This document shows, in pieces, positions 777 to 60,194 of a DNA stretch of 64,000 bases (its first letter is position 1; each line of letters starts with the position of its first letter). The translations under genes and the position numbers were made by a program. Source of the DNA: Raja brachyura (Eukaryota); contig OY740807.1 of NCBI GenBank assembly GCA_963514005.1, positions 29,264,001 through 29,328,000 on the forward strand, given 5' to 3'. A model generated the notes under the pieces. That model saw only the letters and a list, made by a program, of their open reading frames with translations. It had not been told where the DNA came from and did no database searches.

Positions 777-983
777 GCCAGAGAAGTTTCCAACAAGATC
801 CTGAAAGCATCCATTGAAAGCATCGTTTCAGATTCTGAAAGAAGTGGATTATTTGCACAGTGGGGCCAGTGGATTACTCATGACATAAGTTTAACTCAAC
901 CATCCAACAATATCCAGGCCTTCAGCAATGGCATCAACTGTGCAACATCATGTGTTCAGAAAGCTCCTTGTTTCCCCATTAAG
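777..983 (+). CDS. Gene A exon (207 nt), distal His region AREVSNKIL...[12 protein letters not shown]...PCFPIK
   Basis: cttcag|gcc acceptor, aag|gtacag donor; same length as the paralogous gene B exon. Confidence 0.93.
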
Positions 984-3900: not shown

Positions 3901-6900
3901 CCCAAAACATCGCCCATTCCTTCTCTCCAGAGGCGCTGCCTGTCCCACTGAGTTACTCCACCATTTTGTGTGAACCTGGCCCTGATGCGCCCCCTGCAGA
4001 TCAGCTCGCTCAGCTGCAAGCTGCCTTGTGGATCAGTGCCGGGAGCACCTACTTACTGGGATACTCGGATCTCAGCGCTCCAATGCTCCGGGATGCTGCT
4101 TGTAGGTCAAGCAAATTCAATCCCTCCCTCTTCCCTACTCCAATAGTTTCAATAAGAGAAACCCAGAGGTATCGGTTGAAGATATGCTCCTTTGTGATGA
4201 ATTTAATTTGGAGCTGCCGTACATTCTGATGAATTGTTAATAGAAAAATTAAATCAGTCTTTGAAATCTTTTTTCGTATTTGCCAGAGCCTTTTATTCTT
4301 AATAGAAATCACATTATGATCCTCTTTCACATAGTGAGAACACCGTGTATACATTTGGGGAATCCAATGAATATATTAGAAGAATATCCAGGTCACAGGA
4401 CTTAAAACTGTTCTGGGAAAGTCAGGAAACAACCCATGGAGTCTTCATCTATTATATTAGAAACATAGAAACATAGAAAATTGGTGCAGCAGTAGGCCAT
4501 TCAGCCCTTTGAGCCAGCATCTCCATTCAATATGATCATGGCTGATCATCCAAAATTAGTACCCTATTCCTGCTTTGTCCCCATATCCCTTGGTTCAATA
4601 AGCTTTAAGAACTATATCTAACTCTCTTAAAAACATCCAGTGAATTGGCCTCCACTGCCTTCTGTGGCAAAGAATTCCGCAGATTCACAACTCTCTGGGT
4701 GAAAACGTTTTTTCCTCCTCTCAGTCCCAAATGGGCTACCCCTTATTCTTAAACTGTGACCACTGGTTCTGGACTCCCCCAACATCGGGATCATTTTTCC
4801 TGCATCTACCCTGTCCAATCCCTTAAGAATTTTATATGTTTCTTTAAGGGGTTGTCCCACTGCGGCGACCTAATCTGTGAGTTTAGAAGAGTTTTCCCTC
4901 GACTCAAACTCGTAGCATGGTCGACCTGTGGTCCTATGAGGTCACTGGAACTCTTCTTCATGCTCAAGGGAAGGTCCCGCATACTCACGGCCTCAGTTTG
5001 GTTGTAAATTTTCCGCTAGTAAAAATTGGTCAGCATGGTTCTTTTGAACTCATAGAGCAGTGGAGTGGGGTTGCTATGTCGTTATACGCAGTCGAGGGCA
5101 GCTGTAGGCAAGCTCCTTCGCTGACCAGGCATTTTAATTGGCTCATTGTCGTTTTCAGGACCAAGGAAAACCGACCGGTAATGTAAAATGCCCGCTAAAC
5201 TTTATTATGTTGTATGGCTTCTTAAAAGTGTCTCTCCCCCCCCCTTCTCCCCCCTTCTCTCTCCGCCCCCCCCCCCCCCCCCCCCCCCGCGCACTCTCTA
5301 GAGGACTTACCGTACACTGTGCAGCCGTCTTTTACATTCCTATTCATCGCGGGTGTGAATTTCAGACAGTGCTCCCCCGCTTTCCCTGGCCCCCGGCTTT
5401 GTTGTGTGTGTGTGTGCGTGCGGTCGGTCGATCCAGCTCACGGTTTCATCGCTGACGGTCGATCCAGCTTGAGGTTTTTCAGGCGAGTGCCCTCGAGCTT
5501 GAAGGTCGAAGACAGTCGCTGAAAGGTCGCGTTAGTGGGACAGGCCCTTTAAGTTCCCCTCTCATCCTTCTAAATTCCAGTGAATACAAGCCCAGTCGAT
5601 CCATTCTTTCATCATATGTCAGTCCCGCCATACCGGGAATTAGCCTGGTGAACCTATGCTGCACTCACTCAGTAGCAAGAATGTCTTTCCTCAAATTAGG
5701 AGACCAAAATTGCACAAAATACTCCAAGTTTCATCTCACCAGGACCCTGTACAACTGCAGTAGGATTTCCTTGTTCCTATATTCAAATTATTTCGCTATG
5801 AAGCCCAGCATGCCATTTGCTTTCCACACTGCCTGCTGTACCTGCATGTTTACTTTCAGTGACTGATGTACAAGGACACCCAGGTCTCAATGCAACTCCC
5901 CTTTTCCTAATCTGACACTTCAGATAATAATCTGCCTTTTTGTTCTTGCCACCAAAGTGGATAACCTCACATTTATCCACATTATACTGCATTTTATTAA
6001 AAACAATTGCTGTGATAATTTGCCCCTTGTAGCTCTTGATATTGGCAATGGAAGGAATGAATAACAATGTAAAATATAGAGTGACATTAAGGGCAATACC
6101 TATAGTGCAAAGTCATATGTCCTTTTAACTTGCACGTGTATTAATGCTGTCTCATCTTGCACCTGCTATCTTGGACCTTGAGAGAATAGTGCCTGACAAG
6201 ATTATGCAGTTAATTTTCCCCTTCTTGCTTCCATTCCCCGCCTTTACTGCTCCCTCAAACATTGTGAAATCTCTTCAATGTTAATTTACTCTCAGCCCTA
6301 GGGCAACCACTCCATGTATTTTCCACTATCCACAGACGGTAATTCAATATGCACTGTGGCCACTTTGAGATCTAAAAACCAGAACGATTGCAAATTAATG
6401 CAGGTGTACACTGATAGGTGTCAGTTGACAAGCACAAATTCTAGCAACACATGAGAGAAACGCACATCTTAAACAGTGTTACGGTGGTCAGCTGCTTTTT
6501 GAAAAAATGTCCAATTTAATTTAAATGTGAATCATTTCTGTGCACAGGGCTCTGTCCTATAATTAACTCTAATTCTCTTCCCACAGATGCACCTGACCTA
6601 CTTAGTATTCCAGCATTTTGTTATTATTTTAAATTGTACATTAAAACCATTCCAGAGACACTTCAATAGTAAACAGCTCATGCATTCATTAAACTGCTCC
6701 CCTACCCTGATCTATCACCCCTTCCCTTGTTGTTCATCCTCAGGTAACTTGTGATGACCTTCAGGCTACAGACAGTCGACGGTGCCTTCCATTCACCCGT
6801 TCGGCTCTCACATGCCGCTTGGGATTTGGGAACAGGAATGGATGTGAGCAGATCAATGCACACACAGCTTACATCGACGCCAGCAATGTTTACGGCAGCA

Positions 6901-9900
6901 CAGAAAACCAGGCAAAGAAACTCAGAAATTTCACCAATCAACTGGGCCTGTTGAAAGTCAACCCAACCTTTTCAGACCACAACCTGCAATATTTGCCTTT
7001 CAGAAATGTTAGCCAGCCAAATGTTTATCCAATGGCCTACAACAAGTCCTTATGCCCCAGTATTAATATTCCCTGTATGCATGCTGGTAAGAAATTGTTG
7101 ATGGTGATGTAGAATAAATATAACACCGTCCTAGTGTTCAAGTTATTGAATATCATGCACACTGTCCTCTGAGCCATCATTAAGCCTGCTAAAGGGATTG
7201 TCCCACTTTTACGACCTCTGCAGAGTTTGCCCTTAACTCATACTCGCAGCATGGTCGTCACGAGGTCGTAGGAGGTCGTAGGTAGGTCGTAGCAGGTCGT
7301 GATACTAGTCGTAGGTACTCGCGGCATCAAGTAGGTCGGGGTGTTTTTTCAACATGATGAAAAATGTCCACGAGTAAAAAAGGTTGTGAATTAGATGGTG
7401 AAAGTGGGACAGGGCCTTAATGTGAATACTGCATATTTATTTTTTATTTTTTTAAATATTTTTATTAGAAGCATGTATACAAATAATAGTACGTGACAAT
7501 GTAATTACAGAGTTCTTACATAGCTTCATTTTTTTTGATTTTTTTTTAAAGAATAAAGATAAAGAGAGAAAAAGATAAGAGAAACTATAATCTAATAAAG
7601 AGAAAAAGAGGACGAAAAAAGAAATTAAAAATAACAAAATTGTGGAGATAGATCCAGGAGATGTTAAGTGTAACTATTCATCCAATCCCAAACTCAGGCT
7701 TCAATGCTGATCTTGTGTTAAACCAATTTACTTTTTCAAGAATTCAATAAATGGAGACCATATTCTAACAAATAATTCTGGTTTGTCAATTAAGACAAAT
7801 CTTATTTTTTCCAAATGTAAGGTGTCGGTCATTTCCGTAATCCACATTTTAATTGTGGGGGCTGCTGTTTTTTCCCAAAATGTAAGTATTAATTTTTTCA
7901 CAGTTATTAGACTGTAATCAAGAAAGTGTCTCTGTACTGCACATTTAGACCACTGGATCAAATCTGAGAATCTCTGCCTTTCTGATCAATCAGGCCATTT
8001 ACCTGGTATACATTCCTCGAACCACCTCTGCTTTAACTAGTTATTTAGAGATTCATTTTGCCTTATTTGTTCACTCCTATTTGGTAATTGCAGATCCTCG
8101 GACTATTAATCGTAGCATAAATTCACTCACCCATACATTTTGACCTCACGTTTTCATCCTTGTGTAAATAATGCAATTATCCCATCAATCCTAGGCGATG
8201 GCCGAGCAAATGAAAATTTGGGACTGTTGGCATTCCATACGATATTTCTACGGGAACATAATCGTTTAGCGAGGGAGCTGAAGAGACTGAATCCACACTG
8301 GAGTGGAGAAACCATCTATCAGGAGGCGAGGAAAATCATTGGAGCTTTTCATCAGGTGAAGGCAAATTGGAGCATAACTGGAAATGATGCGAGGTTTTGT
8401 CAACCAGGTTTCCAAAGTTCATTCAGTTCTGGACATTTCTAATCTGTCTGGAGCTACCACAGATTAATTGATAAAGATTGACTTCCAGGATCATTTCTGT
8501 TATATCATGGAACCAGCAGGTTAGAGAAAGAGAAAAAGCAAACCTTTATCCACCTAACAGTTTCTGTATTACTGTATCTCCTGTGTTATTGTAAATGTGG
8601 GACTGTACACACGTGGCAATCTGCACCTCTTTGCATGTGTCTAAGCAGTTCCTTATCATACCTTTCAATAGTGACTTTGCATCCAAATTATAAAATTAAG
8701 TAACTTTATGGATGCTGGGAGATTGGCTTAGGGAGCATTGAAATAACTCTGGCTGGAGGTGACAATAAAAGCACAAATTCAGATTCCATTATTGAGTAGA
8801 TGAGGCAAGGACAGAGGCCGACTGTGTGAAATATAATCTCTCCTTATAAGTGGCAAAATATGAATTGGAAATCCAGCTCTGGTTAAGATATACATATTAC
8901 TGATTTTCTTTCATCTGAGACAGTAAGTGGGACAGAGAATGGGACCTGTGGCAAGGCTACCAGGTTTGTGATGGGTTCAAAGATGATTGTTTGGATTAGG
9001 TGAAAGAAAAGCAGGAGACATTCCTGTTACATCCCTGTACCCAGTCCATGCTCCTGCAGAGGAAGTCTATTTCGGAAAGTAGAGTAATGGAATGACAATC
9101 AGAAAAGAAAGTGAGAGAAATATTTTAAAAGCCATTTGGACAGATTCATGTATAGGAAATATTTAGAGGGATATGGCAAACCTAGGCAGGTGGGAGTAAC
9201 ACAGATGGAGCATCTTGTTTGTTGTGGGCAAATTGGGCCAAAGGTCTGTTTCTATACTGTCTGACTCCATGACTAAATAATGGAGGAGAATTAAGGAGTG
9301 TGAATCAACAATTAAAACAATATATAACAAATGTTTAATAATTCCTTTTTGCTTTTTCTCCAACAGATTATAACCTACAGGGATTATATTCCGCGGGTAA
9401 TTGGAAAGCATGCAACGAGGAAGTACTTATCCGAATATCAAGGCTACAATGAATCTGCCGATCCCAGGCTTGCTAATGTTTTTGCTACAGCTGCCATGCG
9501 CTTTGGGCATGTTACTGTGCAACCAGTGGTGAAACGTTTCAATGAAATGTACCAGGAGGACCCAAAATATCCCAGCAAATTCCTGCATGATACTTACTTT
9601 ACTCCGAGGAATCTAATCGAGGAAGGTCTGTAATATAATTATTATTCCATGTGCAAATAACAGCAGCCAAGTTAAATTATTGCTGCACTTTGGTGTTCAG
9701 TAATTGTGTTAGAGTGGGATCGGTCATAGAACAACTTTCTAAGTTATGCTTCCAAATTCCCAAACAGATACAAATAAGATCAACTACAGGAACTAATGGC
9801 TTTTGTACTTTCACATCAATGGCCTAGGTCTACCACGAGTTTGGTGCAGAGGTTGTTTCCACCATGTCTCATCAAATACTCATTATTGAGATATAGAATA

Positions 9901-12900
9901 AGGGGCAGCTGTAAGGGTGGCATGTGGCACAGCGGTAGAGTTGCTGCCTTACAGCGCCAGAGACCCTGGTTCGATCCTGACCATAGGTGCTGTGTGTACA
10001 GAGTTTGTATGTTCTCCCCGTGTGTACGTGGGTTTTCCCTGGGTGCTCTGGTTTCTTCACACAGTCCAAAGATGTACAGGTTTGCAGGTTAATTCGCTTT
10101 GGTAAAGATTGTAAATTGTTCCTAGTGTGTAAGATAGTGCTAGTGTATGGGGATCGCTGGTGGGCCGAAGGGCCTGTTTTCGCACTGTATCTCTAAACTA
10201 ATTAATTTGAAATGTCTGTAGGAAAGTGCAAGATCAAGACTATGTCATAATGGATGTTTGCTCTAATTTTAGTAGAAGACACCTTGTATGGGTGTAGTTA
10301 TAACTATACACAATATAGTTAGGTTCACATTCAAATGTACATTTCCTTTACATGCACTAAGTAGCCTTCTCACGAACTACATCAAACAACTATTTTTGGC
10401 TTAATATTTAAATGTACTGCCTTAATCGGAATGTACTTTACTCACACAACATCTGTAGCAAGTAATTACATTTCTTTATCAACTCGAGTCCCTCAACTCG
10501 ACTTCTCATAAAATAAAGATCAAACTTCAAACTGGTAAGTTCTCGCTTAATCTTACTATTTTCTTCCCCTTTAATTTATACCTGTAACTCCAAATCCACA
10601 ATTGCTCCACCTATCCATTATCCCACTATTTAATCCGACTGGATGACATGTGTTCTGAATTTTGTTGCTACACCTATTATGTGGCACCTTATCAACAGCT
10701 TCTGAAAGCCAATGCATATCACCTCGACTTTATCACCCTCATTGGCACTCTCATAAGTTAATAAGTGATAGGATCAGAATTAGGCCATTTGGCCCATCAA
10801 GTCTACTCCACCATTCAAATTATAGCTGATCCGTCTCTCTTTCCTAACTTCCTAACTCCATTCTTCTGCCTTTTCCCCATAACACCTGACACCCATACTA
10901 ATCAAGAATCTATCTATGCCTGCCTTAAAAAGGTTTAATTAGTAACCATTTAATTTCCTTCTGTACCTCAACTCAATACCCTAGGAAGTCTCCCATACTC
11001 TCTTGGTGACTTACCTACAATGAGTTATTTACATTTTTCTAATAATTCCGTGCCATTTAAAAAAAAAATCTGATTTACAATCCCATTTTCATTTAAATTT
11101 AATCAGGCATTAAATGTAAACATAAATAGCTGTTGTTTGTTGTTGTTTAGGAGGTATTGATCCAATCATCCGCGGTTTATTTGGTTACCCGGCCAAATTG
11201 CAGACCCAAGATGCAATGATGACAGATGAGCTGAGGGAGAAGCTGGTTGTATCAGAGCATGAGATGAATCAGGACCTATCTGCCATTAACATACAGCGAT
11301 CCAGGGACCATGGGCTCCAAGGTAATAGAAGATGGTTTCAGTGAAGGTCCTGACTTACTGATTCAGCTCCCTCAGCCCAATCAGTCACTAGGTGTCGATA
11401 ACTATTTTGCCACTCTGTGACTTATCCATTTGTTTAAAAAAAAATAGATGATGAATCATACAGGATGCTATATTACATAGGCTCAATTTGCAAATTCTCA
11501 GATTGCACAATTGTTGATGCTCTTTATTTTCTTGCACTTATCTTTTTTTTGTTTATCTTAACTGATGAGGAAACAATTAACCTCCATCTCCCAACCCCAA
11601 ATCCAGGTTACAATGCATGGCGAAAGTTCTGTGGACTATCTGAACCCCGTGGTCTCTTTGATCTTTCATTCATCCTCAAGAATATGGAACTTGCATCTAA
11701 TCTCCTCGAATTATATGGAACGCCAGAGAACATTGACGTGTGGGTCGGGGGAATCTCTGAACCCTTTGAGGAAGGTGGCAGGGTGGGCCCATTGTTTAGC
11801 TGCTTGATAGGACGACAGTTCAAGAACCTCAGAGATGGAGACAGGTAACAAATGCATTGTGATTTTAATTACAAACCTGTTGTGGAAACTGAATCTATCC
11901 AATCCAATGACTCGATCGGTTATACAGGTCCACCACTGGTTTTCCGGCACACTTGGTTCCAGCGCATTGCTGTATTACCCGCTTTGCTGGACCAACAGAG
12001 GCCCACAAAGTCAGCCGCTATGGGAACAGATCTGCCGGCTCCGACCGGGTCAAGTCCAGAGCCCCCGCAGCAGGGGGCAAATCCAACTCACCGATCGGCC
12101 ACGAAAGTCCCGATGAGGTTGAGATCGGTCACCTCACCCAGCCTAGGTACTACAAAATCAGGGTGACTTCTAGGGAGGGGGTTTTAAAGTGCGTTCTTGT
12201 AATTTTGTCCGGATTAAAGAAGGTGCTAGCCCACATTACTGGAAAATCGGTGGTGGTCCTGCAATTTTACTTCGCTCATCTTATTCACAATAAAGATGAT
12301 CACAATACAGTTTTAAACAGTATTAAACACAATACAGGTCACTCTTACTGCAGTCGGCAAAAACAAGTACACAAGATAGAAGAAACTACAGGAAAGTAAG
12401 AGGGTGTAAGGAGGGTATTATTTAAAATTGGGGAATTTAATGTTCATACCATTGGATTGTAAGAAGGAACTGCAGATGCTGGTTTAAACCCGAAGATAGA
12501 CACAAAAAGCTGGAGTAACTCAGCAGGACATGCAGCATCTCTGGAGAGAAGGAATGGGTCAAGTTTTGGTTTGAGAATGGTCTCGTTCCTCCCATTTGCA
12601 TGTGGCCTGGCAATGGAGGAGGCCCAAGACAGAAAGGTCATTATGGGGATATCTCTTCCTCTTTCTTCACAGTTCTTTGGCGACATAAGTCCTTGCTCAC
12701 AAGGCTTTTCCCATACCCTTTTTCTAGGAGTAAGCAGCTCCATGTTCAAATCACGAGAAAACAAGTACATAGCAATGTGTAGGGTTCTGTTTCTGGGCGC
12801 TTGAAGTAGCAATAGGGTTGTGCAGGTCAGTTTTCAAAACCTGATGGTTGTCGGAAAGGAGCTGTTTCTGAACCTGATGGTATTAGACGTCAGAATTCTG

Positions 12901-24501: not shown

Positions 24502-24511
24502 GTCAATGAGC
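24489..24511 (-). CDS. Gene B putative terminal coding exon GSLTNEI*
   Basis: ttttatcctgtag|gc is a good acceptor with correct phase; too short to confirm by homology. Confidence 0.55.
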
Positions 24512-33500: not shown

Positions 33501-36500
33501 AACATCAGAGTTATGTATTTTGACCCTCCCCAACACCAGAACAATCAAGCATATTTAGGAATAGTGCTGAATGAGTTTCATCAATTGGGAATAATCAAAT
33601 GGGAAAGTGTATCAAATTCATGACAAGGTATTCTTAATAAATAAACCCGATGAAAAAGTCAGGAGTTTTTTTAAAGCTTCCTATAGGAATTCAGAGCAGT
33701 CACTTTGCTTCTGATTTACATGTTGGCAGCAAGAGACAATACAATTTTATCCAGAGGTCCTTTTAACAATTTCTTGCCGACATTGAATCTTCCTGAGAAG
33801 ATTGGCGTGATCAATTAATTCAGAGGATGTATAAACATTTCTTGTGGGGCACTCAGGAACATCATAGCAAAAGACTTTCCAAATTAACTTATATGGCCTC
33901 CTCACATCTTTCCTGTATCAGCTTAGAAAACCATCGCTCACTCAAGCCACATATTAATATTGTCACAATGTCATTGGACTCGGCTCTGCTTGGTGAAGAA
34001 AAATGACAGGTCAATGGTTGGATCCAGATAGGAAGTTGATCAGAATCAGAATCAATTTATTGGCCAAGTATGTACACATACAAGGGATTTGACTTGGTGC
34101 TTTGCTCTCACATGGTAAATCACAATACACAGCATTAAACGATTAAGACGATTAAAAAACAATTGTACTTTAAAAATGTAAAACTAAAGTGCAAGAGTAA
34201 AAAGGGGCAGCTTTGCTATATACTGCATGGCTATGTGTTCAAGAATTTTAACTGGTTCCTCACTGGGTTTACACGAGGATAATTGTTCATTCCTGGTAAT
34301 GAATTCCATTATTTTACTCAGAGCCGAAGATAAACTTTTTGTCCCCGTCTTGCTGAATTAAGCTTTTTTTGGGAAACCAGGACCATATTAACCAGTTTCC
34401 AACTTGCCGTTATCTCCCCAGGATCCGCTGTCTCCTTCACACTGATTCCAGACAAATCTCCTAGTCTCTCGCTCCCAACATAAATGAGCGCTGGCTTCCA
34501 TCTATTGCTGGGAATGTATTTATTTTGAGCCTCTGTATAGGACTTTAATGGTTTATGTTGACAAATTAATTCTGCTTCATTTATTTCCCTTTTGAGTTTT
34601 GTATGTCACTCACTTCTACCTGATTCAGTGCATGAAATGAGCAATTCGTTATTAATAGAAGAATTTCTCATGTGAAGTCACTCTGGGTGTTTACTTAAAG
34701 CCATAGATTCAACACAATGATACAACATGGAAATAAGCTGATCAGTTCCTTGGATATCTCCCACTTTCTTGAAAAGGGTATCCAGTTAGTATATTTTGGG
34801 GTTATGGGAGGAAACCCACATGATCACGGGGAGGGCATGCAAACTCTGTGCTGATCATTTTAATTACAAATATAAAATGATCCACAAAGAAGGAGTGTTC
34901 TACTTTCAATAGGATGATGTGCATTGGAGGTCTCACCTGCCATGAAGCAAGGAACTCCAGTGCTGTTGGGATTCATAGTACACGGGTTCTCTAGCTCACC
35001 ACTGCTGAATGGTAAGTACTCCAGCCCATTATCCGAGTAGTTTTGGTTAATCATCAGCATTCCCAGATCAGTGGTATGGTTTCGGATTCGATTTGCAACA
35101 GATTTGACGCTCCCATACACCATACTGGAATCGATAAAGGCTGTTACAGCATTTAGTTGTTCCCGAACGTGAACGTGAACGTGTCCAAAGATTGAGCCCA
35201 GATCACCAATGCCACATACAGGAGCTGATCGCAAGAAAGGCATGCAGACTACACTGCTATTGAACCTGAAGTCATTCCTAGGTATCTATTAATGACAGCA
35301 ATAAAACCAATTTCAGGCATCTGAGCATACACATGCTAATTCACAAGATAAATCAGCATCTCTGATAGATAAAGCTTCCTCACTCAGAAACACATACACG
35401 CATGTGCACACTTCAACTGAAATAAATCACTTTCCAAAAAATCAATGTTGCTATCAGTGGACATTTAACCTAACCTCCCGGTGCATTACATTTGCAGGTC
35501 TGTCCAGGAATCCCCATGAATTTAAGATTAATCTCTTAAAAACTGCCTGCATGCCAACAGGACAAAAAGCACTCTGACTTAAAATAGTCTTACATTTAAA
35601 AAAAAATCAATGTTGTGTTTTAGTAATAAAAATCCATAAGATGGGAGACAGGCTGAATGATTACTTGTGGAGCATGGGGCAAGGAGGTTTTAGAGAATTC
35701 CAATGTTCAATTCTTCAAGGATATAACTAAACAGATTTGAAACTAAACAGATCTGTACAATCATGAGGAGAAATGTGGCAAAATTCAGGACAGCAATCTA
35801 AGGTTAGCTGCTTAATTTGAGTGTGATGCATAATATAGTTTAAATGCAACATTGGTATCTGTGGATAACTCTCCTGCCAGTTATCACTGATAATCTTAAA
35901 GGCGACAAGGAACAGGGTGGTATTTTGTTCAGCAAGGGCTGAAGTGCCAGTAACAATGCAATCATTTTTGATGACTAAATTATCTATAGACATTAATGGT
36001 CAAATTCTCAGCAACTAAAATGAGGTCAGCCAATTTATGTCAGGTTATATTCAAGTTCAAGATGAAGCAATCTTCTAACACAAAATGACATTAGCAAAAA
36101 ACATAGAGGATATACAGAAGAAGCCACTATAGTCTGAGAGCGAATCCCTCTCGACCATCTCCAGTCACTTTCTGAAACACAGAAAGAACTACTGATCTGT
36201 AATCATTAGAATAAATGTTAACATCAACATGCAATTTAAAGCTGTGGGTGTTTACTGTGTATATTTCAATTACCAAACAAGACCTTATGGGTTCATAGTG
36301 GCGTCATGTAATCCTGAATATTAGCAATGTCCTTATGTCAGCAGAAACAACTCACGTTTATACAGAGCACTGAAAAGCATGTGAACATAGCAGAACAAAA
36401 TGGATACATGATCAAAGATGAAAGTGGTGGTGGCAAAAAAGTTAGATAAGAGGCAAATGTTCAAAATGGATTTTAAGGAGAATAGATTTGTGGGAAATAG

Positions 36501-39500
36501 TGGGCTTTTGGATGGAAATTCCAGTGCATAGGAGCTAATCAATGAAAGGCTTGGTCTTTAATGGTTGGATGAAGGGAAGGAGCATGCAGAAGAAGCTCGA
36601 GGAATGCAGAAATCATGGATTGAAAAGATAAAGGAGGTTGCAATGACATGAAAGAATTTGAACACAGGAAAGTTGTAGCTGTAGAAAAGACAATCCTGCA
36701 TTTGTGTGGGGTGAAGCAGCAGTTTAAAATAAGATGGAACCAAGGTTTGCACTATTTGTTGAGGAGAAACATTGTTGTTGACTTTAAAAGAACGGAGGAG
36801 AAAATATTTTCTCAAAAGTTTTGATATGTCAGCTATCTTCATGCTAATAGAAATATATTGCATTATTGCTGAAAACTAGGCTTTTAAAAAACAATTTATT
36901 TGGCAATATCTAAGGAACTGGTTAAAACTCTACTGTGCTTATTCTACCTCTATATATCAAGAACAAAGTATTCTGACCCTGATGGGAAAACATGGACTTC
37001 TCCGTGCACATGTTTTATCACAATGAATGCCTTCATTGAAAGTTTGGATGCTGCCTGATTGAGGGGCTAAGCCCAGGTCATGATCAAGCCATTGGCCCCA
37101 TTGCACAAAGATGTGAGCATAGTCCTGGTCCAAGGGTATCATCTGGTTGGACACCTGCAGAATTTTATTCGATACTCTTCGCACCTGAAAAATAAAAAAG
37201 GTAATAAAAGATATTGTGTTTGGAAACATGATTCTTGGCTCCTTAGAGAGTATCAGAATCTAGCAATGTCAACTCTTCATTACTGTATCTAGAGTCATGA
37301 GGGCTTTTGTTATTAATACAAGGCTTCCAGCTGCTAGGAGAAAAATAGCATAGGCCAGACAGGTCAGACCCAGTCTTTAGTGATCCATTAACCATTCAAT
37401 GGGTCTTACACTATTGTCACAAGGCCAGTGTACTTCATGGATTACCTGTGCGGAAGATGCTAAACTGAAGCGAAGGACAATCTTGAGATTGAGAGCCCCA
37501 TTACCTTGCTCCCACCTCTCCCATTGCCACATTTAGTTTGTGAATCTCTTTCCAGGGTCGACAGTAATTCTTCCGCATGCAAAGATCACAATAACAGGAG
37601 AAGCTGGGTGCCTGGTCTGCTGCGTCCTAGTGTGATTCATGGGCCTTCGGTCACATCTTTATCTTACTTGTGACAGGAATGCACTATTAACACTCATGCT
37701 GATTTATTCTTCACATGTTATAGATTTTCCTCTTCAACGTATCAGTGATATGAGTGTGTTTCAGGTATGCCATTGGAGAACAAAAGCCAGAGGAAATGCA
37801 TATGCCAGTTACGTTCCCCGGAACTGGATGCAGTGATGGGACTGAAAGCTGGAATGGAAGAAGTTTACCATCCCAGTATACGGACCGTATAATCCAGCAT
37901 CTGCAGTTCCTTCCTACACAAGGAAGAGGTTTCATTCATTAGGGATTCTGGTTTTCAATTGCTTAACTTAAGCCTCTTTTTATATATATAGTGCCACTTG
38001 GCTCCCCGAAACTGGAAATGGGGGAAATGGTTTTTCCCTTTGATTGCTAAGAGTGAGATTGTGAGAGAGGGAGAGTGAAAAGAAGGGGGGTTACACAAAA
38101 AGCTGGAGAAACTCAGCGGGTGCAGCAGCATCTAAGGAGCAAGTGAAAAGAAATTCTGCGCTGTCCCTAATTATCCATCTGAAGAATAACTTGCCTACCA
38201 GCGGCAGACGAAATCCTGAATATAACGTCCTTCTGCTCCAGCCCTTTGGAAGTGAAAACCCATCCTCATATTGAGCTGGGAGCCAGCGGGCAAATGCAAC
38301 ATTAGCCGCTCCCAGACGAGGATTCTTCCTAGAAAATTGACAAAATAAAACAGGTGAATGTAGCAACGTTACAAAATTTTGAGATTTAAAAAATCAAGTC
38401 TGCAATTTATCCCATCAGATAAAGCATAAAAAGAAGTTTAATTTGACACCTAATTTACTTTCATATCTTCAGTATTAAGAAAGTTATGGCCATTTTCATA
38501 CTCGGAAATTAGCATCTTGCTCCCCATTGCCTTTCAATTGACTTAACTCAAAAGCTGTGATCTGGGAAAGTTAAAAGCCCATAACTTTCTTAAAAATTAA
38601 GAGAACTCAATGAAATTTTCAGTTATTATAGATTGAAGCATTCTGAAACAAATATGAAACAATCTTACTTGGATGACCTGAAATTAAAGCATATAATTAG
38701 TTAGTTATCTAATTGTAGCTAATTACAAAATTCAATGAGTAGATCTAAACATCTATCCATGTCTTAAGAAAAGATAAACTTTTTTTAAATTGCCTAAGTG
38801 TCCAAATAACATTCACACAATAATCCACAATATAACATAATTTTTAAATCTCATTTTCATGAATTTCTGGGCCAAATGGAAGGAATTTAGTGTTTAATGC
38901 CTGTAAATTAATGGCCATTTAAATCAACTCGCGAGTGGGTTTTAGTGGAATGCGGTGGATTGGAACGTTGCGGTTAGCGGTGAACTCAGTATGAAAAATA
39001 CTGTTTGTTCATACATTTTTTTGGACCCCATTTCGCAACATAAAAATATTATTAAAGCCTCCCGAAAAACCAACTTTTAATATAAAAATAAACTATTTAC
39101 CTTTTTTCTCCCCTTTGCAAAATCCTTCCGGTTATCGGTTCTCACGGCTTTTGAAGGTGATTTTGAAATTACTCTAGTTAATAAATAATTTAGAGTAATT
39201 TAAAAATACCTTCATTCATGAAATGTCGGAGCGATTTTTCATCTGCAATGAAATCGCCCGACATTCATCGATTTTCCAGGTCTGTTGAAAAATGGCACTT
39301 TAAGCCCGCCCCCCTCTGAAAGGCGCCAAAGTCGCGCACACGGGGAGCGGCAGAACTGCAGCGCTGCTCAAGGTAAGTTTTGCAACATACCTAGTGAATG
39401 TATTTAATCTTATTTTTCCAAATTATTTCTGTCTCCATGAGTCACAAGTGATAGGAGCAGAATTAGGCCATTTGGCCCATCATGTCTACTCCGCCATTCA

Positions 39501-42500
39501 ATCACGGCTGATCTATCCCTCCCTCTCAACCCCATTCTCCTGCCTTCTCCCCATAACCCCTGATACACGTACTAATCAAGAATCTATCTATCTCTAACTT
39601 AATAATATCCATTGACAGCCTCAACATCCTCCTGTCGCAATGAATTCCACAGATTTGACACCCTCCGACTAAAAGCAGTTCCTCCTCCTTCCTCAAGGAA
39701 CGTCTTTTCATTCTGAGATTATGACCTTTGGTCCTTGGCTCTCCCACTAGTGGAAATATCCTCTCCACATCCACTCTATCCAATTGGTACAGGACTATCT
39801 GTCTTTCCAATCTATTATTGATGGCCCAATAATACTATTCTCCAAACTCTACAGTCCCTCAGGGCTGTCTTTCTAACTCTTTACCTATCCCCATTCTGAC
39901 ATAGGACTATCTTCCAGTCCCATGATATAGATATAGACCTGTTCTTCTAAGGGCTAATGGCCCAACATATTTTTTTAAGATTACCCGTCTAATTCCCACT
40001 GACCTTGCAACCCGCATGGGATCACACACTCACGACCCTGAACCATCTGATGCCGACTCTTTCACGTGCAGTTTTATCAATTCCTGCCTCAGGGAAAGAC
40101 CCTCTTCCTCAGTGGGTGCCAGGAAACAGACAATACAAAGAGATTACAACTCAGACAAGTTTACAATCGTGCACCAAATTCAGTACTGACAATGAGCCAC
40201 AGGGCTGTGCTGGTATAAATGGCTATCATATGCCTTTGCCAAATCTCAGTGCGTCTGGTAGTTTCACGCATGTGGATAGTACCACAGTTGTGTAAAACAC
40301 AAATTCATATCAATAGCCTTAAGAGTGCAACTCATAGTTGCCTCTTCATTGTACCTCCATCTGCACAAACTTCTTATCATTCCTCATCAGACTAACTCCA
40401 GGTGTGAGTGTGGCACGATACCAAGTGCAAATACTCTCCGGTATCTTGTGGGATTGAGTTCCATTATCAGGCTAGAGTTTGTCCCAGTGCCAGGTAGGAA
40501 TCCTGTTCAGTACCAGGTGAGAATCACTCCAGTCCCAGAGAGAAGTGCAGCCTAATGATAGGTTCAGTGCTGGGTGCAGTGCCAAACAGGGGTATGTTTG
40601 AGAGCTCGGTGATTGTAGTTTAGCTCCAGATCACTTGCTATGCTTATCATTTTACTGTAGGATATCCAATATTCTGAAATTAATCGAACAAAGAGATATC
40701 TTTGTCAAATGTAATGGTTGGGTTCAACTACACTTTTGATATTTAATTGATTAATGAGTTTTGGCTTTGAATTTTGTCCCTAATGAAACTTTGTATTGTA
40801 ATTACTGGCTGTGAATAACAGTACTTACTTTCTGGCTGTGAACAACAGTTCTATTTGATAATTGATTAAATTGAATGAAAGATACAGCATAGAAAGAGGC
40901 TCTTCAGTCCACGCCGACTATCAATAACTTGTTCACCCAAGTTCTGTGGTATCCCACTTTTCCATCCGCTCCCTATACGCTGGGAGTAATTTACATAGGC
41001 CAATTAACCACATCTCAAAGACGAGGAGGATGTAGGAGGCAACCAGAGTACCCGGAGGAAACCCGAACAGTCACAGGGAGAACATGCAAACTCCACACAT
41101 TCAGCACCCATAGTCGGGTTCGAACCCAGGTCTCTGGTGCTAGGATGCTGCAACTCTACCAGCTGTGCCACTGTGCCGCTCTTGCACAGTTGTGCCACCT
41201 CATCAATATGGTCACCAATTTAAAGGTTGTGTAATGCGACTGACTGCTTTCTAGACTGCAATGTTTACATAAATTCCAGCAACAATTTGTGACAATCCAT
41301 GGAATCAACCAGGCATTTTGACCCTTCTGCTTGTGGCTCGGGTATAACTCTGTACACTCAACAACAGGCTTTGCTGGAGGATAAGAACTCAGCGAGCACA
41401 TGTACTGTAGAAGCTTTTTTTAGTGCCTACCTGTTGTTGCACTGAGAGTTGATGGTCCTATATCTGTTTGACCAACAGTCACCCCCACAAACTGTGGGCA
41501 GGGATGGAGCTGAGCAGCCAGTGATCCTCGAGATGGTATCCAGATCTGTCTGCGTTAATAGATCTGCTCAACACACAAGGGAGAACACTGTAAACTCTGA
41601 AAGATGGTCCACTTCAAGGTCCCAATGCGGCAAATGGTGCAGTTTCATCGTGTGTGTCAAATACTGTGTAAGTTCATAAGATCATTAGTGATTGGAGTTG
41701 AATTAGGCCTTTCGGCCCATCAAGTCTACTCCGCCATTCAATCGTGGCTGATCTCTCTCTCCCTCCTAACCCCATTCTCCTGCCTTCTCTCCATAATCTC
41801 TGACACCCATACTAATCAAGAATGTCCCCGCCTTAAATATATCCACTAACTTTGTCTCCACAGCCTTTTGTGGCAATATGTACAAGAGAGTAAATTTATT
41901 TTGAAACAAAGATGTATTCCACAGCTCAAGTTTCAGTTGAGATCATTATCAAGCTAGGTTAGGGGATTATCGTTTATGTAAGTAGAATGTTTCCAGGGGA
42001 CAAATTCAAAGATTGAAACATTTTTATACTATGCAACACCAATTACAAACTCACAAATTTGAAGTCTCTGAATGAATTGAAATTTAACGGGAAAGCAGAA
42101 GCCTGCAGGTTAATTCATTAAACAAGACTGTGCTCACCAGTTTCATTGGGTCGATATTGGTGTAGTTGAGTTATTTGTAAAATATTTACCCTGATATACA
42201 CTCCCATCACTACTTCACTACCACATTCTGACATCACTGATAGTGTCCTTTCGGCCTCTTCTATAATGCTCTACCATCCAACCCAAACTCAGATCAATTG
42301 CCAGCCTCTGATGCCCCCATGACTGCATTGTCCTGCATTAATTGTACCTGCCAACTGAATCACATCCTGATATCCTCTCCCATACAATCATTGCCACAGA
42401 GGGCTGTGGAGGCCAAGTTAGTGGCATCATTTTAAGGCAGAGATAGACAAATTCTTGATTGGAATAGGTATCAAGGGTCATAGGGAGAAGGCAATAAAAT

Positions 42501-45500
42501 GGGATTAGGAGGCAGAGATCAACCACGATTGAATGGCGGAGTGGACTCGATGGGCGAATGGCCTAATTCTGTAACGTGAACTTGTGAACCACTCATCCCT
42601 CAGTATCATATCATCTGATGCTATCACTTCCCCGAAGTGGAGCTAGTGGAGGATAGACATATTTACTCATATAGGACAAACAATGACTTTGTATTCATGC
42701 TTGATTGCATGTCCCTGCCAGAATACCCTTCACAAAACTGGACTGCACTTGTCTGGCTCTATTAATGCATATTTATTCGACCATTTTTCAACCTTAAATG
42801 ACTTTCAAATATATATATTTTTTTAAGTCTGAAAAGAGAAGTTAGTTTTCCTGACCGGGGGACAGTCGCTACTTTAAGTTTAGAGTTAAAGCGTGGAAAC
42901 TGGACTTTCGGCCTACCGAGTCAGCAAACAAACCAATGATCACCTCGCACACTAACACTATCCTACACACACAAGGGAAAATTTAACATTTTTGGAAAGC
43001 CAATGAACCTACACACCTGTACATCTTTGGAGTGTGGGAGGAAACTGGAGCACCCAGAGAAAACCCATGCAGATCATGAAGAGAACGTACCAACTCCGTA
43101 CAAACAACACCCGTAGTCAGGATCTAACCTGGGTCTCTGGCGCTGTAAGGCAGTAACTCTACCGCTGCGCCACCGTGCCGCCCGATGAACTAACGTGTGC
43201 TATTGTAGATATCAGCAGTATTTGTATGCAGCAACTAGAAGATGAGGTCAGGGATGCCTGCCAATCTGAACTATCTCCTGGAGCAATAACAAGTGCAAGC
43301 CCATCATTGGTCTCCTGTGGGCCTGGCACTTTTCTAACTCACCTGTTATATTGAGCCGGTGTTTGTAGATGCCCTTGGCATTGTGCTGGATGAGCTTTAG
43401 TGCAGTTTCCATGTACTCAGCAGACCGCACCGCAGTTCTAGTCTCTCCCACAGGCTGCTTAAAATAGGCCAGCAGGTCAGCTGAAGTCAGGGCCCCTTTT
43501 GCCAGTTTAACCTTGTGGCTGAATAAAGCAACTGTTTTCAGATAAACTAAAATTGTATAAGAGATAACCAGACATCTTCATTTCTGTGACATTTTTTTAT
43601 GAAGAGTGACTTTCCAAGGTATTTCACGTAGGCACAAAGAACAAATGAAAAGATAAGGAATTGAGAATCAGCAGACAAATAGGAAAGACGTTTGGCCCAA
43701 CATTAGAAAGTTCCGATCATCTCCCCAACCCCTTGCAACATCCAATTTAATTTTGAGATACAATGGGGAAACAAGCTCTTCGGCCCACCGAGTCTGCACC
43801 GACCAGTGATCCCCGCACTTTAAAATTACCCTCCACACACTAGAGACAATTTACACATATACCAAGCCAATTAACCTACAAACCCTGTACGTCTTTGGAG
43901 TGTGGGAGGAAACTGAAGATCTAGGAGAAAATCCACGCGGTCAAGGGAAGAACATACAAACTCCGTACAGACAGCACCTGTAGTCAGGTTCGAACCCGGG
44001 TCTCTGGCGCTGCAAGCTCTGAAAGGCAGCAACTCTACTGTTGCGGCACCATGCTGCCCTAATTAAATTGTTTATGAAATGATTCCAAGAAATTCACTAA
44101 GTTTATTCTATGGTTTTAGTACAAAGATATCAGTCCTTAAGCTGCCACTTATAAGTTTTAACCTGCATAACGTTACTTATTTTCAATTCATCCCATAATG
44201 TCCGAGCTACTTTTCCCAATTCGGTCAATGTTGATTCTATCAGAAAGTTGACAAAATTATATTAAGCTTATATATTGGATGTGACTTGGAAAAAATAATG
44301 CTTCCAACATTGAATCCCTGCTGCACTGTTGAAATTTTCACTCCAGCCTGACCTTGATAGAGAATGCATAACTGATGAAATTCAGCAAATAAAAAATGGC
44401 AGAAATTAAATAACAGGACAGAAGGAATCAAATGTAGGACAGAGGAATCAGATACAGTACTAAATTATACGGATGATCAGATCCAGATGATCACAGATTC
44501 AAAAGGCAATGAAATGGTGAGGAAATATTACACTGGTAAAGATTCATCAACATTATGGGTGATTCCAGGTCGTAAGCTATGCACCCCAAAAATCCCCTTG
44601 TCCCTTGATAAAGTTGCCTTTTTCCTCCTCACGCAGTTTTCCAGCCGTATTATCTGATTTCTTCTTGTTCAGCTCCGATAACTTTTGCGCACCTATGTCA
44701 GAGTTAAAGTTCTCCTGAAATCAGACTAAATTTCTAGGGTAGACACACAAAGCTGAAGTAACTCAGCGGGACAGGCAGCATCTCTGGAGAGAGCGAATGG
44801 GTGACGTTTCATGTCGAGACCCTTCTTCAGACTAAATTTCTAGTCTGAATATCAAATAGCAAATAACAAAACAGACATCTAAATATTTTGTCACACCACT
44901 GATGCGAGTACACTGGAAATGATGTATGTACACTGGCATATTGTTTGTGTATTAACTGTTACTTTCAACATGCTGAGGTCTCTATTACCCTTAAAGAACT
45001 GTATCACGTGGTGAACCGTTGCAACATCTCTGGAGAACATGGTTAGGGGACGTTTCGAGTCCTGACACTTCTACAGACACTCGGTCTGCAACTGGGCCCT
45101 GGCCTACTGGCGGCCGGTGGCGAGACAAGGATTGGTGGAGTTGATGGTCGTGGCCCGCAGGCAGCCGGAGTACAGGTAGGGATCGGCGGTGACAGCAGCA
45201 TAGGTGCGGCCAAGGGAGCTGTGTGGGCCGGCGGTGTCTGGCCTGAAAGTAGTCGGAGAGCCACTGCGTGCCGGCATCGGCAGCCTGTCTTGGCGGTGAA
45301 AGTCGGTAGGACTAGTCTGGAAGCGGTTGAAGTGGTGGTGTAGGGCGGCAGCAGCTTTGGTGGTCCTGGCCTCAGAGAGACCGGGGAGGCGGTGAACAAT
45401 CGTGCTGCATCTCTCAATACCACTGCGGGTTTCGACATCGTGGCAGTCGGGTGCGTGGCGCAATCCAGCGGTGGTTTGACCGAATCCATGCTCTCCAGAG

Positions 45501-47294
45501 ATGCTGCCTGACCTATTGACTTACTCCAGCACTTTGCGTCCTTTATCATTGCACAAGTGTTGATTGAAGGAAATGCTTGTCAATTTCACTGGCCTCCACA
45601 GTGTAACTAACAGCCTATGTTCTTAGAGAGACATTGGTGACCAATTACTGTGAGACACTCGGTCCACTATAACCATTATAAGAGGTCCATAACAACAAGG
45701 GTTTACTATAATTCTAATTACAAAACTCCCTTTTTCATCTGGATCCAAGAGTGTTGGATTTATCTGATACAAATAAATATTAAACCAGTGAGCATGGTGC
45801 AGCTGCCTCCTGTATGAAGTCTACTTTTGAGGTAATTACTTACTCATCTCTGCTTTCTTTATATGCTCTGTCCACCATTTTGATCGCTTGCTGGACAGCA
45901 TTGTGAACAACCAACTTGCCTCGGACTTCCTCAGAACCTGTGCATTCAATAGGAATAGAGAAAGTCACAGAGTGCTGAAGTAGTTCAGTACATCAGTTTA
46001 GCCACACAGGTTATGGAGATGATCGAGTTTGTGGTAGACCTCCTACTGCAGGCGAGTAAGGAATGGAGCACAAAGGCACAACACAGCAGTTGGGTGAAAT
46101 AATAGGTGAAGCAGGATGCAACAGAACATACAGTAATACATCAGTTCAATCAGGAACTCTTTCCCAGATTAGTTTAGTGTAGTTCAAAGATCCAGCGTGG
46201 AAATCTACGCCCACCGAATCCGCACCAACCAGCGATCCGCGCACATTAACACTATCCTACACTCACTTGGGACAATTTACAATTTTACCAAGTCAATTAA
46301 CCTACAAACTTGTGCGTCTTTGGAGTGTGGGAGGAAACCAGAGTTTCCGGGGAAAACCCACGCAGGTAATGGAGTGAACGCACAAACTCCGTATGGACAG
46401 CGCCTGTAGTCAGGATCGAACCCGCGTCTCTGGTGCTCTAAGGCAGCAACCATACCGTTGCGCCACCATGCCACGCTGCTTTTGGAAAATATGATGAGCA
46501 CGGCTTAGTATAAACCAGGGATGGAGGCCAAGATTGTGAATGATGCCAGTTCAGCAGCAGACAGCATGTTATCTATTACAAGGTTGGGATCAGCAATCAA
46601 ACTATTTCTGGAGCAGATATTGGGAGCAAGAATATTCCTGTGCATTCATTCCACTCTTTGATAAAATAATTCTTTTGAATTCCCTTTTGAATTTATTAGT
46701 GGGTGACTAATATTATTGGCTTATTATTTTTCTACCTTCTCCCTTTCAAACAACTTTGTAAATGTTGAGAACTTGTTGAGTTACCTCTCTGCTATCTCTT
46801 TGCTGGGGAGAATGTCAGCCTTTCCAAATAAATGTATCCTCTCAGTTTAGAAACCTTCATCTGGGGTGGGGTGTGGTCTTGTTGGTTACCTCCAGATTAT
46901 TTTTTTAAAATCATGTAGAGGCCAAGTCTAAGTGAGTAATACAATACTTCACAACAATCCAAAGTTAACGTAGTATGTTTTTAATGCAGCCAGACTGCAC
47001 TTTGAACTTGTGCTGTCTAGATACCATGTGCAATATTGTCAATACTAATGTACAAATGCTGAATTGTAAGTACAACATCGCTGCTTCCTCCGGTTTGATT
47101 ATCCGGACATTAGTACCAGGCGAGCATTTTCATGTGGATTCAATTTAAGAAGTTTGCTTCAAGAGATAATTGCAGAGAAGAGTTATCAGGCACCTTGGAA
47201 GGTTCAGATTCAATTTCTCACCTGCATTTACTTCATCGGTCTGAAGCACAAAAAGTGCAGTCAGGAACATGTTCAGAATCCACAAAGGCACCAT
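24489..47294 (-). CDS. Gene B: secretory-pathway heme peroxidase (EPX/MPO/TPO-like) with C-terminal Sushi domain, ~793 aa; complement(join(24489..24511,25912..26073,27864..28069,28573..28810,30013..30183,30494..30752,32985..33145,34937..35285,36978..37184,38199..38328,41431..41563,43343..43518,45844..45937,47222..47294))
   Basis: Signal peptide, propeptide exons, [50 protein letters not shown]. All junctions GT-AG; total 2382 nt (794 codons including stop). Confidence 0.94.
24808..25035. mobile_element. Palindromic Penelope-derived repeat, full hairpin copy
   Basis: Inverted arms tagacacaaaaagctggagtaactca / tgagttactccagctttttgtgtcta. Confidence 0.75.
25912..26073 (-). CDS. Gene B exon (162 nt), Sushi/CCP domain CGSAP...[37 protein letters not shown]
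   Basis: CCP consensus; phase 1-1; same length as the gene A Sushi exon. Confidence 0.92.
26155..26296 (-). mobile_element. Short ~140-bp retroposon with 11-bp TSD TGGTTTTGAAC
   Basis: TSD at 26144 and 26297; same family as 16321-16454. Confidence 0.8.
27389..27618. mobile_element. Palindromic Penelope-derived repeat with hammerhead-like motifs; related copies or fragments near 1-46, 300-410, 3812-3970, 12460-12570, 25545-25695, 27068-27155, 29185-29285, 44740-44835, 48805-48930, 61475-61570 and 62770-62945
   Basis: Arms tagacacaaaatgctggagtaactcagcggg... and their reverse complement flank a central cttcttcagac/gtctgaagaag axis. Confidence 0.75.
27864..28069 (-). CDS. Gene B exon (206 nt), FWWEHQGVF...[10 protein letters not shown]...[10 protein letters not shown]
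   Basis: GT-AG; paralogous to 17353..17558. Confidence 0.94.
28573..28810 (-). CDS. Gene B exon (238 nt), [11 protein letters not shown]...NLRDGDR
   Basis: GT-AG; conserved motifs. Confidence 0.95.
29592..29818. mobile_element. Palindromic Penelope-derived repeat, full hairpin copy
   Basis: ~95-bp inverted arms centred on cagactcagtctg. Confidence 0.75.
30013..30183 (-). CDS. Gene B exon (171 nt), [10 protein letters not shown]...[16 protein letters not shown] (absent from the ORF track)
   Basis: Translated by hand; ctaccag| and |gtactg. Confidence 0.94.
30494..30752 (-). CDS. Gene B exon (259 nt), [10 protein letters not shown]...[12 protein letters not shown] (proximal His)
   Basis: GT-AG; paralogous to 9367..9625. 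Confidence 0.95.
31160..31700. mobile_element. Harbinger-type MITE, TTA TSD, internal acgtaggttgtc repeats
   Basis: tta|tgggcctgtcccactt ... aagtgggacaggccca|tta. Confidence 0.88.
32303..32878. mobile_element. Two V-SINE-like copies in inverted, tail-to-tail arrangement
   Basis: Plus-strand copy at about 32303-32560 and minus-strand copy at about 32600-32878. Confidence 0.7.
32985..33145 (-). CDS. Gene B exon (161 nt), [11 protein letters not shown]...[10 protein letters not shown]...GAFHQ
   Basis: Distal Arg/Glu motif; GT-AG. Confidence 0.95.
34937..35285 (-). CDS. Gene B exon (349 nt), IPRNDFRF...[11 protein letters not shown]...[19 protein letters not shown]...PCFMAG
   Basis: attaatag|ata acceptor, gcag|gtgaga donor; open frame. 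Confidence 0.93.
36978..37184 (-). CDS. Gene B exon (207 nt), VRRVSNKI...[13 protein letters not shown]...PCFPIR
   Basis: Distal His motif GQxxDHD; GT-AG. Confidence 0.95.
38199..38328 (-). CDS. Gene B exon (130 nt), [30 protein letters not shown]...LPL
   Basis: Conserved RWLPAxYEDG; GT-AG. Confidence 0.95.
38361..39393 (+). mobile_element. Non-autonomous DNA transposon, ~1.03 kb, TAG...CTA termini, 7-bp TSD GTGAATG
   Basis: TSD at 38354-38360 and 39394-39400; imperfect TIR tagcaacgttacaaaa / ttttgcaacataccta; highly similar inverted copy at 49763-50792. Confidence 0.88.
39440..39785 (-). mobile_element. CR1 LINE 3' fragment
   Basis: [24 protein letters not shown] peptide. Confidence 0.8.
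40880..41180 (-). mobile_element. V-SINE-like SINE
   Basis: Same head and body as 9918-10200, reversed. Confidence 0.75.
41431..41563 (-). CDS. Gene B exon (133 nt), [18 protein letters not shown]...[20 protein letters not shown]
   Basis: Translated by hand; YRTxxxxCNN motif; gagcag| and |gtaggc. Confidence 0.93.
42880..43183 (-). mobile_element. V-SINE-like SINE
   Basis: Reverse complement begins gggcggcacggtgggcgcagcggtagag. Confidence 0.85.
43343..43518 (-). CDS. Gene B exon (176 nt), HKVKLAKG...[26 protein letters not shown]
   Basis: MPO-family LLxYFKQPVxxTRTAVRxAxY motif; GT-AG. Confidence 0.94.
43755..44058 (-). mobile_element. V-SINE-like SINE
   Basis: Same family, with ggttcgaacc B box. 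Confidence 0.83.
45844..45937 (-). CDS. Gene B exon (94 nt), propeptide [31 protein letters not shown]
   Basis: Resembles the MPO/EPX propeptide motif (VDxAYK); gcacag| acceptor, |gtaagt donor. Confidence 0.9.
46175..46473 (-). mobile_element. V-SINE-like SINE
   Basis: Same family. Confidence 0.82.
47222..47294 (-). CDS. Gene B first coding exon, signal peptide [24 protein letters not shown]
   Basis: gttttcag|aATG acceptor 1 nt before the ATG, hydrophobic core, VNA cleavage-like motif, gcag|gtgaga donor. Confidence 0.85.
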
Positions 47295-60110: not shown

Positions 60111-60194
60111 TTCATGACTTCATAAGTGATAAGAGCAGACTTTTTGGGTCGAGAAAGTCTGAAGAAGGATCTCAAACCAAAACATCACTCATCA

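Follow-up and report, generated by a model that had tools for sequence, protein, structure and literature searches.

Two peroxidase genes, here called A and B, lie in a 64,000-nucleotide (nt) stretch of the Raja brachyura genome (the window; G000:C29:29,264,001-29,328,000), and each joins a heme peroxidase domain to a Sushi domain, also called a complement control protein (CCP) domain, before ending in a short tail. We consider it probable that these intact cartilaginous-fish genes encode heme peroxidases other than TPO, likely co-orthologous to MPO/EPX/LPO and probably either secreted or stored in granules, with an inherited Sushi domain that is likely disulfide-held as in TPO. The layout is an ancient one that has been retained; it is no missing link. 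Throughout, C29 is the contig of the window, and C5 and C18 are other contigs of the same genome.

Structure and protein ends of genes A and B

Gene B lies on the minus strand (47294-24489) and has 14 coding exons (Table 1), an intact open frame of 793 amino acids and GT-AG boundaries in 13/13 introns. Its protein has a hydrophobic N terminus, and the first coding exon likely encodes a signal peptide; for both genes, signal peptides were judged from hydropathy and orthologues. Because a splice acceptor is found directly 5' of the ATG, a further-upstream non-coding exon is probable. The last intron is spanned by one contig joining 24375-24510 to 25911-26073 (run X1, from a related organism and flagged "RNA? 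probably DNA"; contig depth 3); read-based contigs, from two runs, were examined over 20400-28200 only. The protein is identical to Amblyraja radiata P0001 at 762/793 positions (96%), and the C termini match.

Gene A lies on the plus strand, spans about 42 kb and encodes 824 amino acids in 14 coding exons, nine in the window (777-20961) and five upstream. It starts at G000:C29:29,242,978, 21,022 bases upstream of the window, with a hydrophobic N terminus of its own; an earlier note on this DNA had seen the 3' part only. Exon sizes in the two genes are equal apart from exons 7 and 14, and the proteins are 53% identical. Gene A matches Leucoraja erinacea P0047 at 777/824 positions (94%), with matching C termini, and a 3,550-nt Logan contig encodes an entire 824-residue orthologue including the acidic tail. 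A contig from run X2, for which an RNA nature is a guess, covers 21023-22056 in the likely 3' untranslated region. Gene A has no counterpart of gene B Cys131, carries two additional cysteines (274 and 305) and has a fast-diverging propeptide. Tails in the shark A lineage (P0017, P0035, P0038, P0044-P0046) show a Gly/Lys/Pro stretch before the acidic end that, by eye, looks like a collagen remnant.

The 162-nt exons match the Pfam Sushi family (E 9.5e-11 in gene A and 3.7e-9 in gene B). An EGF profile built from 11 relatives gave a best match of only E 0.49 over the window plus 80 kb upstream (144 kb), and its sole match in the genome was the TPO gene on C5 (E 5.7e-22). No hydrophobic 19-mer above 1.21 was found past residue 30 in either protein, as compared with 2.91 in a membrane-anchored paralogue on C18. 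A raw six-frame DNA hydrophobicity scan returned seven scan windows above 1.9 near the 3' ends, but it missed TPO's own membrane exon and was given no weight. C1q gave no match within the window. Orthologues in three other skates have ends of an identical kind, and three automatic annotations (XP_032902011.1, XP_055513990.1, and XP_055513991.1), named "eosinophil peroxidase-like" or "myeloperoxidase-like", are 94-96% identical to A and B. Judged from the encoded proteins, A and B are probably secreted or granule enzymes. The earlier note's outline of the genes held up here: a peroxidase spliced to a 162-nt Sushi exon and a short tail is seen in the gene models, Pfam matches, database orthologues, and one spliced contig; the lack of an EGF or transmembrane exon agrees with the EGF profile and protein hydropathy; and the gene B signal peptide corresponds to the hydrophobic N terminus of the full model, a feature that gene A has too.

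Phylogeny and locus

The main tree (IQ-TREE, LG+G4) was built from 39 rows and 585 catalytic-domain columns, with rows chosen from about 330 proteins to cover lineages; human MPO, EPX, and LPO lay outside the trees, with platypus, bird, and amphibian MPO as stand-ins. The grouping of A and B with TPO and MPO apart from peroxidasin received 100/100. Amphioxus and Styela diverge first, and the TPO clade (100/100) is sister to all other rows, including A and B (100/100). The C18-type genes form a clade (100/99) with A and B outside it, nine shark-cluster rows group together (90/85), and the MPO-like set including lamprey separates from the C18 type at 81/45 in IQ-TREE and 0.93 in FastTree; a FastTree analysis with 69 rows agrees with the 39-row tree. 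In the approximately unbiased (AU) test, grouping A and B with TPO was rejected (p 1.65e-54). A single clade of all Sushi-less MPO-like rows was also rejected (p 0.017), and one of all bony-vertebrate MPO-like rows was compatible (p 0.29). The Sushi state changes at least three times on the tree. A and B are firmly not TPO, and they are likely shark-lineage co-orthologues of MPO/EPX/LPO.

A separate TPO gene lies on C5, with Sushi and EGF domains and an unsplit 510-nt exon (349 + 161); peroxidasin is about 0.2 Mb away. TPO orthology of A and B was rejected on this gene and on the AU test. The genome's only Spt4 match is on C29 at 28.09 Mb, 175 kb from the cluster that contains A and B, and an RNF43/ZNRF3-type gene lies at 27.83-27.87 Mb, 0.4 Mb from the cluster. 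We take the human gene order to be MPO-TSPOAP1-SUPT4H1-RNF43, and by its SUPT4H1 and RNF43-type neighbors the cluster is likely the MPO/EPX/LPO locus. A B9-C2 gene on C29 at 26.23 Mb may be MKS1. The earlier note placed the pair between TPO and MPO/EPX/LPO, a position that gives way here, since A and B fall outside the TPO clade, among MPO-like genes and at an SUPT4H1/RNF43-type locus.

That note had also pointed to the intron before the GDGRxxE motif. A 161-nt exon starting at this motif is present in A, B, the C1q-tailed gene described below, the modelled tandem copy, and the C18 gene, and not in C5 TPO. The intron is thus a genuine difference from TPO within this genome (349 or 343 + 161 versus 510 nt), but it fails as a marker, and was rejected as a sign of intermediacy, since the membrane-anchored C18 paralogue has it. 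Presumably the large catalytic exon of human TPO is unsplit and human MPO has the GDGRxxE intron; TPO and MPO exon positions were reportedly treated by Kimura in 1989.

The C18 gene itself (29.06-29.09 Mb; L041-L044) has a Sushi domain and no EGF. Its lineage is found in sharks, coelacanth, sturgeon, a teleost, and lizards, is annotated variously as EPX or TPO-like, and has no mammalian member among the rows listed. An additional, divergent MPO-like protein (P0099 and its cluster) occurs in carpet sharks and has neither Sushi nor the partner cysteine discussed below.

Distribution of the Sushi domain

Among the 120 listed of 1,913 matches, 56 were named as cartilaginous fish, and 50/56 of these had a Sushi domain (6 with a membrane segment, 12 with C1q, and 32 with neither); none showed EGF. 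In coelacanth P0027 and lungfish P0041 a short tail follows the Sushi domain, and the lamprey protein combines Sushi with an EGF-like stretch and a hydrophobic segment. Sushi also stands 3' of the catalytic domain in amphioxus, the tunicate Styela, three TPOs, and a teleost "epx", with EGF in all except the pipefish TPO model. Because Sushi is found in amphioxus, tunicate, lamprey, TPO, coelacanth, lungfish, and most cartilaginous-fish rows, it is the ancestral state of the family, inherited from early chordates and lost more than once.

The earlier suggestion of soluble enzymes retaining an ancestral CCP agrees with this spread and with the lack of an anchor in A and B. Its restriction to a chondrichthyan lineage is ruled out by P0027 and P0041, which share the layout. 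The statement that only TPO has a CCP among mammals is correct for the mammalian proteins examined, but in other vertebrates the C18 type has one as well.

A literature search, with most subscription journals outside its reach, found no description of Sushi- or C1q-bearing MPO-like proteins. The accessible portions of PMC7717901, PMC13113109, PMC13337447, and PMC2315650 contain nothing on a Sushi-ended MPO-like layout, and that of PMC4420034 mentions just "minor subfamilies of fish peroxidases"; such proteins could also appear in the supplementary alignments of PMC4420034 or PMC5787809. The layout is real, ordinary for cartilaginous fish and apparently little described, with the proteins already in RefSeq with these domains.

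A candidate disulfide between the Sushi and catalytic domains

In the cryo-electron microscopy structure of human TPO, a Cys146-Cys756 disulfide fixes the CCP on the catalytic domain (PMC9986399, in part). Cys756 lies 14 positions after the first CCP cysteine, and Cys748 of A and Cys750 of B have the same spacing. This fifth cysteine is present in 22/23 peroxidase-attached Sushi domains versus 0/4 stand-alone Sushi domains of the cluster in that column. The partner site, the second Cys of a CxxxC motif before CNN, is residue 144 in both A and B. The partner cysteine was found in 69/72 Sushi-bearing rows (one without, two unscorable) and was absent from 55/68 Sushi-less rows. Pipefish TPO has lost both cysteines, and the human MPO alignment has a 3-residue gap at the partner site. 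AlphaFold modelled the Sushi domain confidently (predicted local distance difference test 84-94; predicted template modeling score 0.88). A complex prediction with the catalytic domain and Sushi as separate chains scored 0.02 with the alignment unused and weighs neither way. Because both cysteines are kept and track the Sushi domain, a structural role is favored over targeting, and a Cys144-Cys748 (A) or Cys144-Cys750 (B) disulfide likely holds Sushi to the catalytic domain as in TPO. An additional binding role is possible; none of the analyses points to a partner.

Active-site residues and predicted chemistry

Both genes retain an An_peroxidase domain with the distal Gln, His, and Arg, the heme-linking Glu, and the proximal His and Asn (residue roles in family 1 chordate heme peroxidases are given in the part of PMC3533774 available to us). 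MPO Met243, which forms the sulfonium link, is absent in both, with Asn in A and His in B. The heme-linking Asp (MPO Asp94) is kept in B and replaced by Thr in A; the A lineage lacks it in 12/12 rows (Thr, Ser, or Asn), and Asp is present in 123/140 rows overall. Coelacanth P0027 and lamprey P0097 also lack this Asp. The available part of PMC5787809 gives a reduction-potential series of -0.276 V for one ester link, about -0.18 V for two, and +0.005 V for MPO, and describes the single-ester-link state as unique to the Dictyostelium enzyme among the members studied. By their residues, two heme ester links are predicted for B, as in LPO/EPO, and for A the Glu link only, which would make it a weaker oxidizer of thiocyanate and iodide. 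Since neither has the sulfonium Met, strong chlorination by A or B is unlikely.

Coordinates and neighboring genes

Table 1. Features of genes A and B in the window, with coordinates counted from its first base
Feature	Size (nt)	Position	Strand	Remarks
Gene A exon 6	207	777..983	+	Distal Gln and His; Thr replaces heme-linking Asp
Gene A exon 7	343	6744..7086	+	
Gene A exon 8	161	8195..8355	+	Distal Arg, heme-linking Glu; Asn at MPO Met243 position
Gene A exon 9	259	9367..9625	+	Proximal His
Gene A exon 10	171	11151..11321	+	
Gene A exon 11	238	11607..11844	+	
Gene A exon 12	206	17353..17558	+	Catalytic domain ends
Gene A exon 13	162	20527..20688	+	Sushi/CCP with fifth cysteine Cys748
Gene A last coding exon		20840..20961	+	Acidic tail of 40 residues, then stop; P0047, P0300, P0302, and P0308 share this tail
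Gene A likely 3' untranslated region		20962..22140	+	AATAAA at 22118; putative end
Gene B exon 1 (first coding)	73	47222..47294	-	Likely signal peptide
Gene B exon 2	94	45844..45937	-	Propeptide
Gene B exon 3	176	43343..43518	-	Propeptide
Gene B exon 4	133	41431..41563	-	Cys144, putative partner of the fifth Sushi cysteine
Gene B exon 5	130	38199..38328	-	
Gene B exon 6	207	36978..37184	-	Gln233, Asp236, His237
Gene B exon 7	349	34937..35285	-	
Gene B exon 8	161	32985..33145	-	Arg391, Glu394; His395 at MPO Met243 position
Gene B exon 9	259	30494..30752	-	Proximal His489
Gene B exon 10	171	30013..30183	-	
Gene B exon 11	238	28573..28810	-	
Gene B exon 12	206	27864..28069	-	
Gene B exon 13	162	25912..26073	-	Sushi/CCP with fifth cysteine Cys750
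Gene B exon 14 (last coding)	23	24489..24511	-	7-residue tail and stop; spliced contig

The C29 cluster runs from a peroxidase-Sushi-collagen-C1q gene through eight near-identical partial copies and three stand-alone Sushi-collagen-C1q genes to A and B. The C1q-tailed gene (28,263,928-28,289,383, minus strand; L066-L068) is intact, encodes 943 amino acids and shows 83% identity to the protein encoded by a Logan contig of 3,255 nt. The eight tandem peroxidase copies occupy 28.35-29.05 Mb at a spacing of about 90-100 kb; in the three looked at, similarity over 38 kb was 99.5-99.8% and coding exons 2-6 were missing, and a genome-wide search found the distal-His exon in none of the eight. One copy has a non-canonical donor. 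The A. radiata orthologue is whole, and the skate copies here likely reflect either amplification of a pseudogene or an artefact of the assembly. The stand-alone genes lie at 29.141 (-), 29.177 (+), and 29.219 (+) Mb (L076, L077, and L034), and one of them has two Sushi domains. Introns at the locus contain many repeat copies, and a reverse-transcriptase fragment (Pfam RVT_1, E 1.5e-8) is present at 60126-60449 of the window.

Eight cartilaginous-fish and seven ray-finned peroxidases have C1q tails that cluster together at 86/69, which is not firm, and peroxidase C1q tails together with the three stand-alone C1q genes are set apart at 100/98 from 17 other C1q domains of the genome. In zebrafish, the cDNA-backed mpx isoform 1 (NP_001338766.1) ends in collagen-C1q, and isoform 2 (NP_997944.2) ends in a short acidic tail. 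The simplest reading is a single origin of the C1q tail in the jawed-vertebrate ancestor, and two separate fusions with the same neighbors are possible.

Discussion

We suggest that the ancestor had a peroxidase-Sushi-EGF-membrane anchor layout, that the A/B lineage shed the anchor and retained a stapled Sushi, and that tetrapod MPO and ray-finned mpx would later have lost Sushi along with its partner cysteine. The signal peptide and propeptide would route the A and B enzymes to secretion or granules, where H2O2 might generate compound I and drive the oxidation of thiocyanate, iodide and, in B, bromide to antimicrobial oxidants.

Several points weigh against this reading. The trees used LG+G4 without a mixture model, an MPO-like clade distinct from the C18 type is weakly supported (81/45), and orthology leans on synteny with the human gene order given above. 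The equation of TPO Cys146 with Cys144 of A and B depends in part on TPO residue numbering. The partner cysteine is retained in 12/68 Sushi-less rows, comprising seven apparently truncated or exon-skipping models, one peroxidasin, and four lungfish or coelacanth proteins that are possibly complete; moreover, the 140 rows are kin, and with a few events behind them the counts overstate independence. The disulfide in A and B is itself predicted, not observed, and a confident AlphaFold Sushi does not show the bond. In peroxidasin, Cys736-Cys1315 links monomers into trimers (PMC8533639, in part); if its cysteine is taken as the same site, a bond between chains is possible by analogy in A and B.

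Retention of the Sushi domain mainly for targeting or binding, to complement, matrix, or a microbial surface, strikes us as unlikely. When skate proteins are compared with their shark or ray orthologues, the domain keeps 66-76% identity, more than the propeptide and near the 70-85% of the catalytic domain; CCP domains often mediate protein contacts (PMC9986399, in part), and a stapled domain can still offer a binding face. Yet no analysis suggests a partner, the conserved cysteine pair explains retention without one, and Sushi was lost more than once among MPO-like lineages. A different origin is raised by the three stand-alone Sushi-collagen-C1q genes within the cluster, with C1q domains that group with peroxidase C1q tails (100/98): the A/B Sushi could have been acquired from them by fusion and later trimmed. 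We regard this as quite improbable, as their Sushi domains lack the fifth cysteine in that column (0/4) and are 24-42% identical to the A/B Sushi, versus 58% for coelacanth and 44-46% for lamprey, lungfish, and C18. A 50-column Sushi tree also separates A and B from the stand-alone domains, weakly (82/83), with too few columns to resolve the question.

It is very improbable that A and B derive from TPO or form a true TPO-MPO stem lineage, possibly acting as thyroid iodinating enzymes. A/B and TPO do have in common the CCP, exons of 133 and 259 nt, and the pair of cysteines, and the data would allow a lineage basal to all bony-vertebrate MPO-like genes (though this equals the species tree), but the AU result and the separate TPO on C5 speak against it, and the shared features are ancestral. 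We give almost no credence to the short tails being one isoform, with distant EGF, membrane, or C1q exons also spliced. Strong splice donors do lie 3' of both Sushi exons, and zebrafish mpx has two alternative ends; however, A and B stand tail to tail with 3.5 kb between their stops, the EGF and C1q searches were empty over the spans given above, and the skate orthologues share the same ends.

Beyond the preferred explanation of an inherited, stapled Sushi, we offer tentatively, and with more doubt than conviction, a broader scenario. The earliest jawed vertebrates may have had, as their myeloid peroxidase, a trimeric peroxidase-Sushi-collagen-C1q oxidase, in which a C1q-type recognition head replaced TPO's anchor via a module common to neighboring genes. 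The third skate cluster gene would keep all of these parts and mpx isoform 1 the collagen-C1q, A and B would be trimmed to the stapled Sushi (with A a single-ester-link enzyme besides), and mammalian MPO/EPX/LPO would be the bare remnant.

These findings correct the textbook view of the CCP as peculiar to TPO: the domain is ancestral in chordates, and sharks, rays, coelacanth, and lungfish retain it in soluble proteins. Soluble Sushi-ended proteins are natural models of the TPO catalytic domain-CCP unit, for which a PDB search found no entry. The cluster suggests a division of chemistry in cartilaginous-fish defence, with two heme links or one and no chlorinating Met, and a related collagen-C1q tail sits on zebrafish mpx, a standard neutrophil marker. 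Public databases already carry annotations of the A/B pair, so the finding is less of a surprise.

Compared with known systems, A and B resemble TPO in having a CCP directly after the catalytic domain, a five-cysteine pattern and, by prediction, an interdomain disulfide; unlike TPO, they are without EGF or anchor, have an intron splitting TPO's 510-nt exon, and belong to a different contig and clade. The C18-type lineage shares the Sushi with the fifth cysteine and the 161-nt exon, but forms its own clade (100/99) and has a membrane segment, with EGF too in lizards and Menidia. Zebrafish mpx likely belongs to the same MPO-like lineage as A and B, its isoform 2 with a short acidic tail and its isoform 1 with collagen-C1q like the third skate cluster gene; unlike A and B, it has no Sushi and no partner cysteine. 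With MPO/EPX/LPO, A and B share a signal peptide, propeptide, and catalytic domain, likely the same locus, and the Gln, His, Arg, Glu, His, and Asn residues; the gene B orthologue aligns with human proMPO over residues 24-729 (E 1e-242), and a structural model matches the LPO and proMPO folds. Unlike MPO, which ends after the catalytic domain, A and B add Sushi and its partner cysteine and have no Met243, and A has no Asp94. Closest of all are the shark, ray, and skate proteins named "eosinophil peroxidase-like" or "myeloperoxidase-like", which are direct orthologues with the same domains and tails and no substantive difference.

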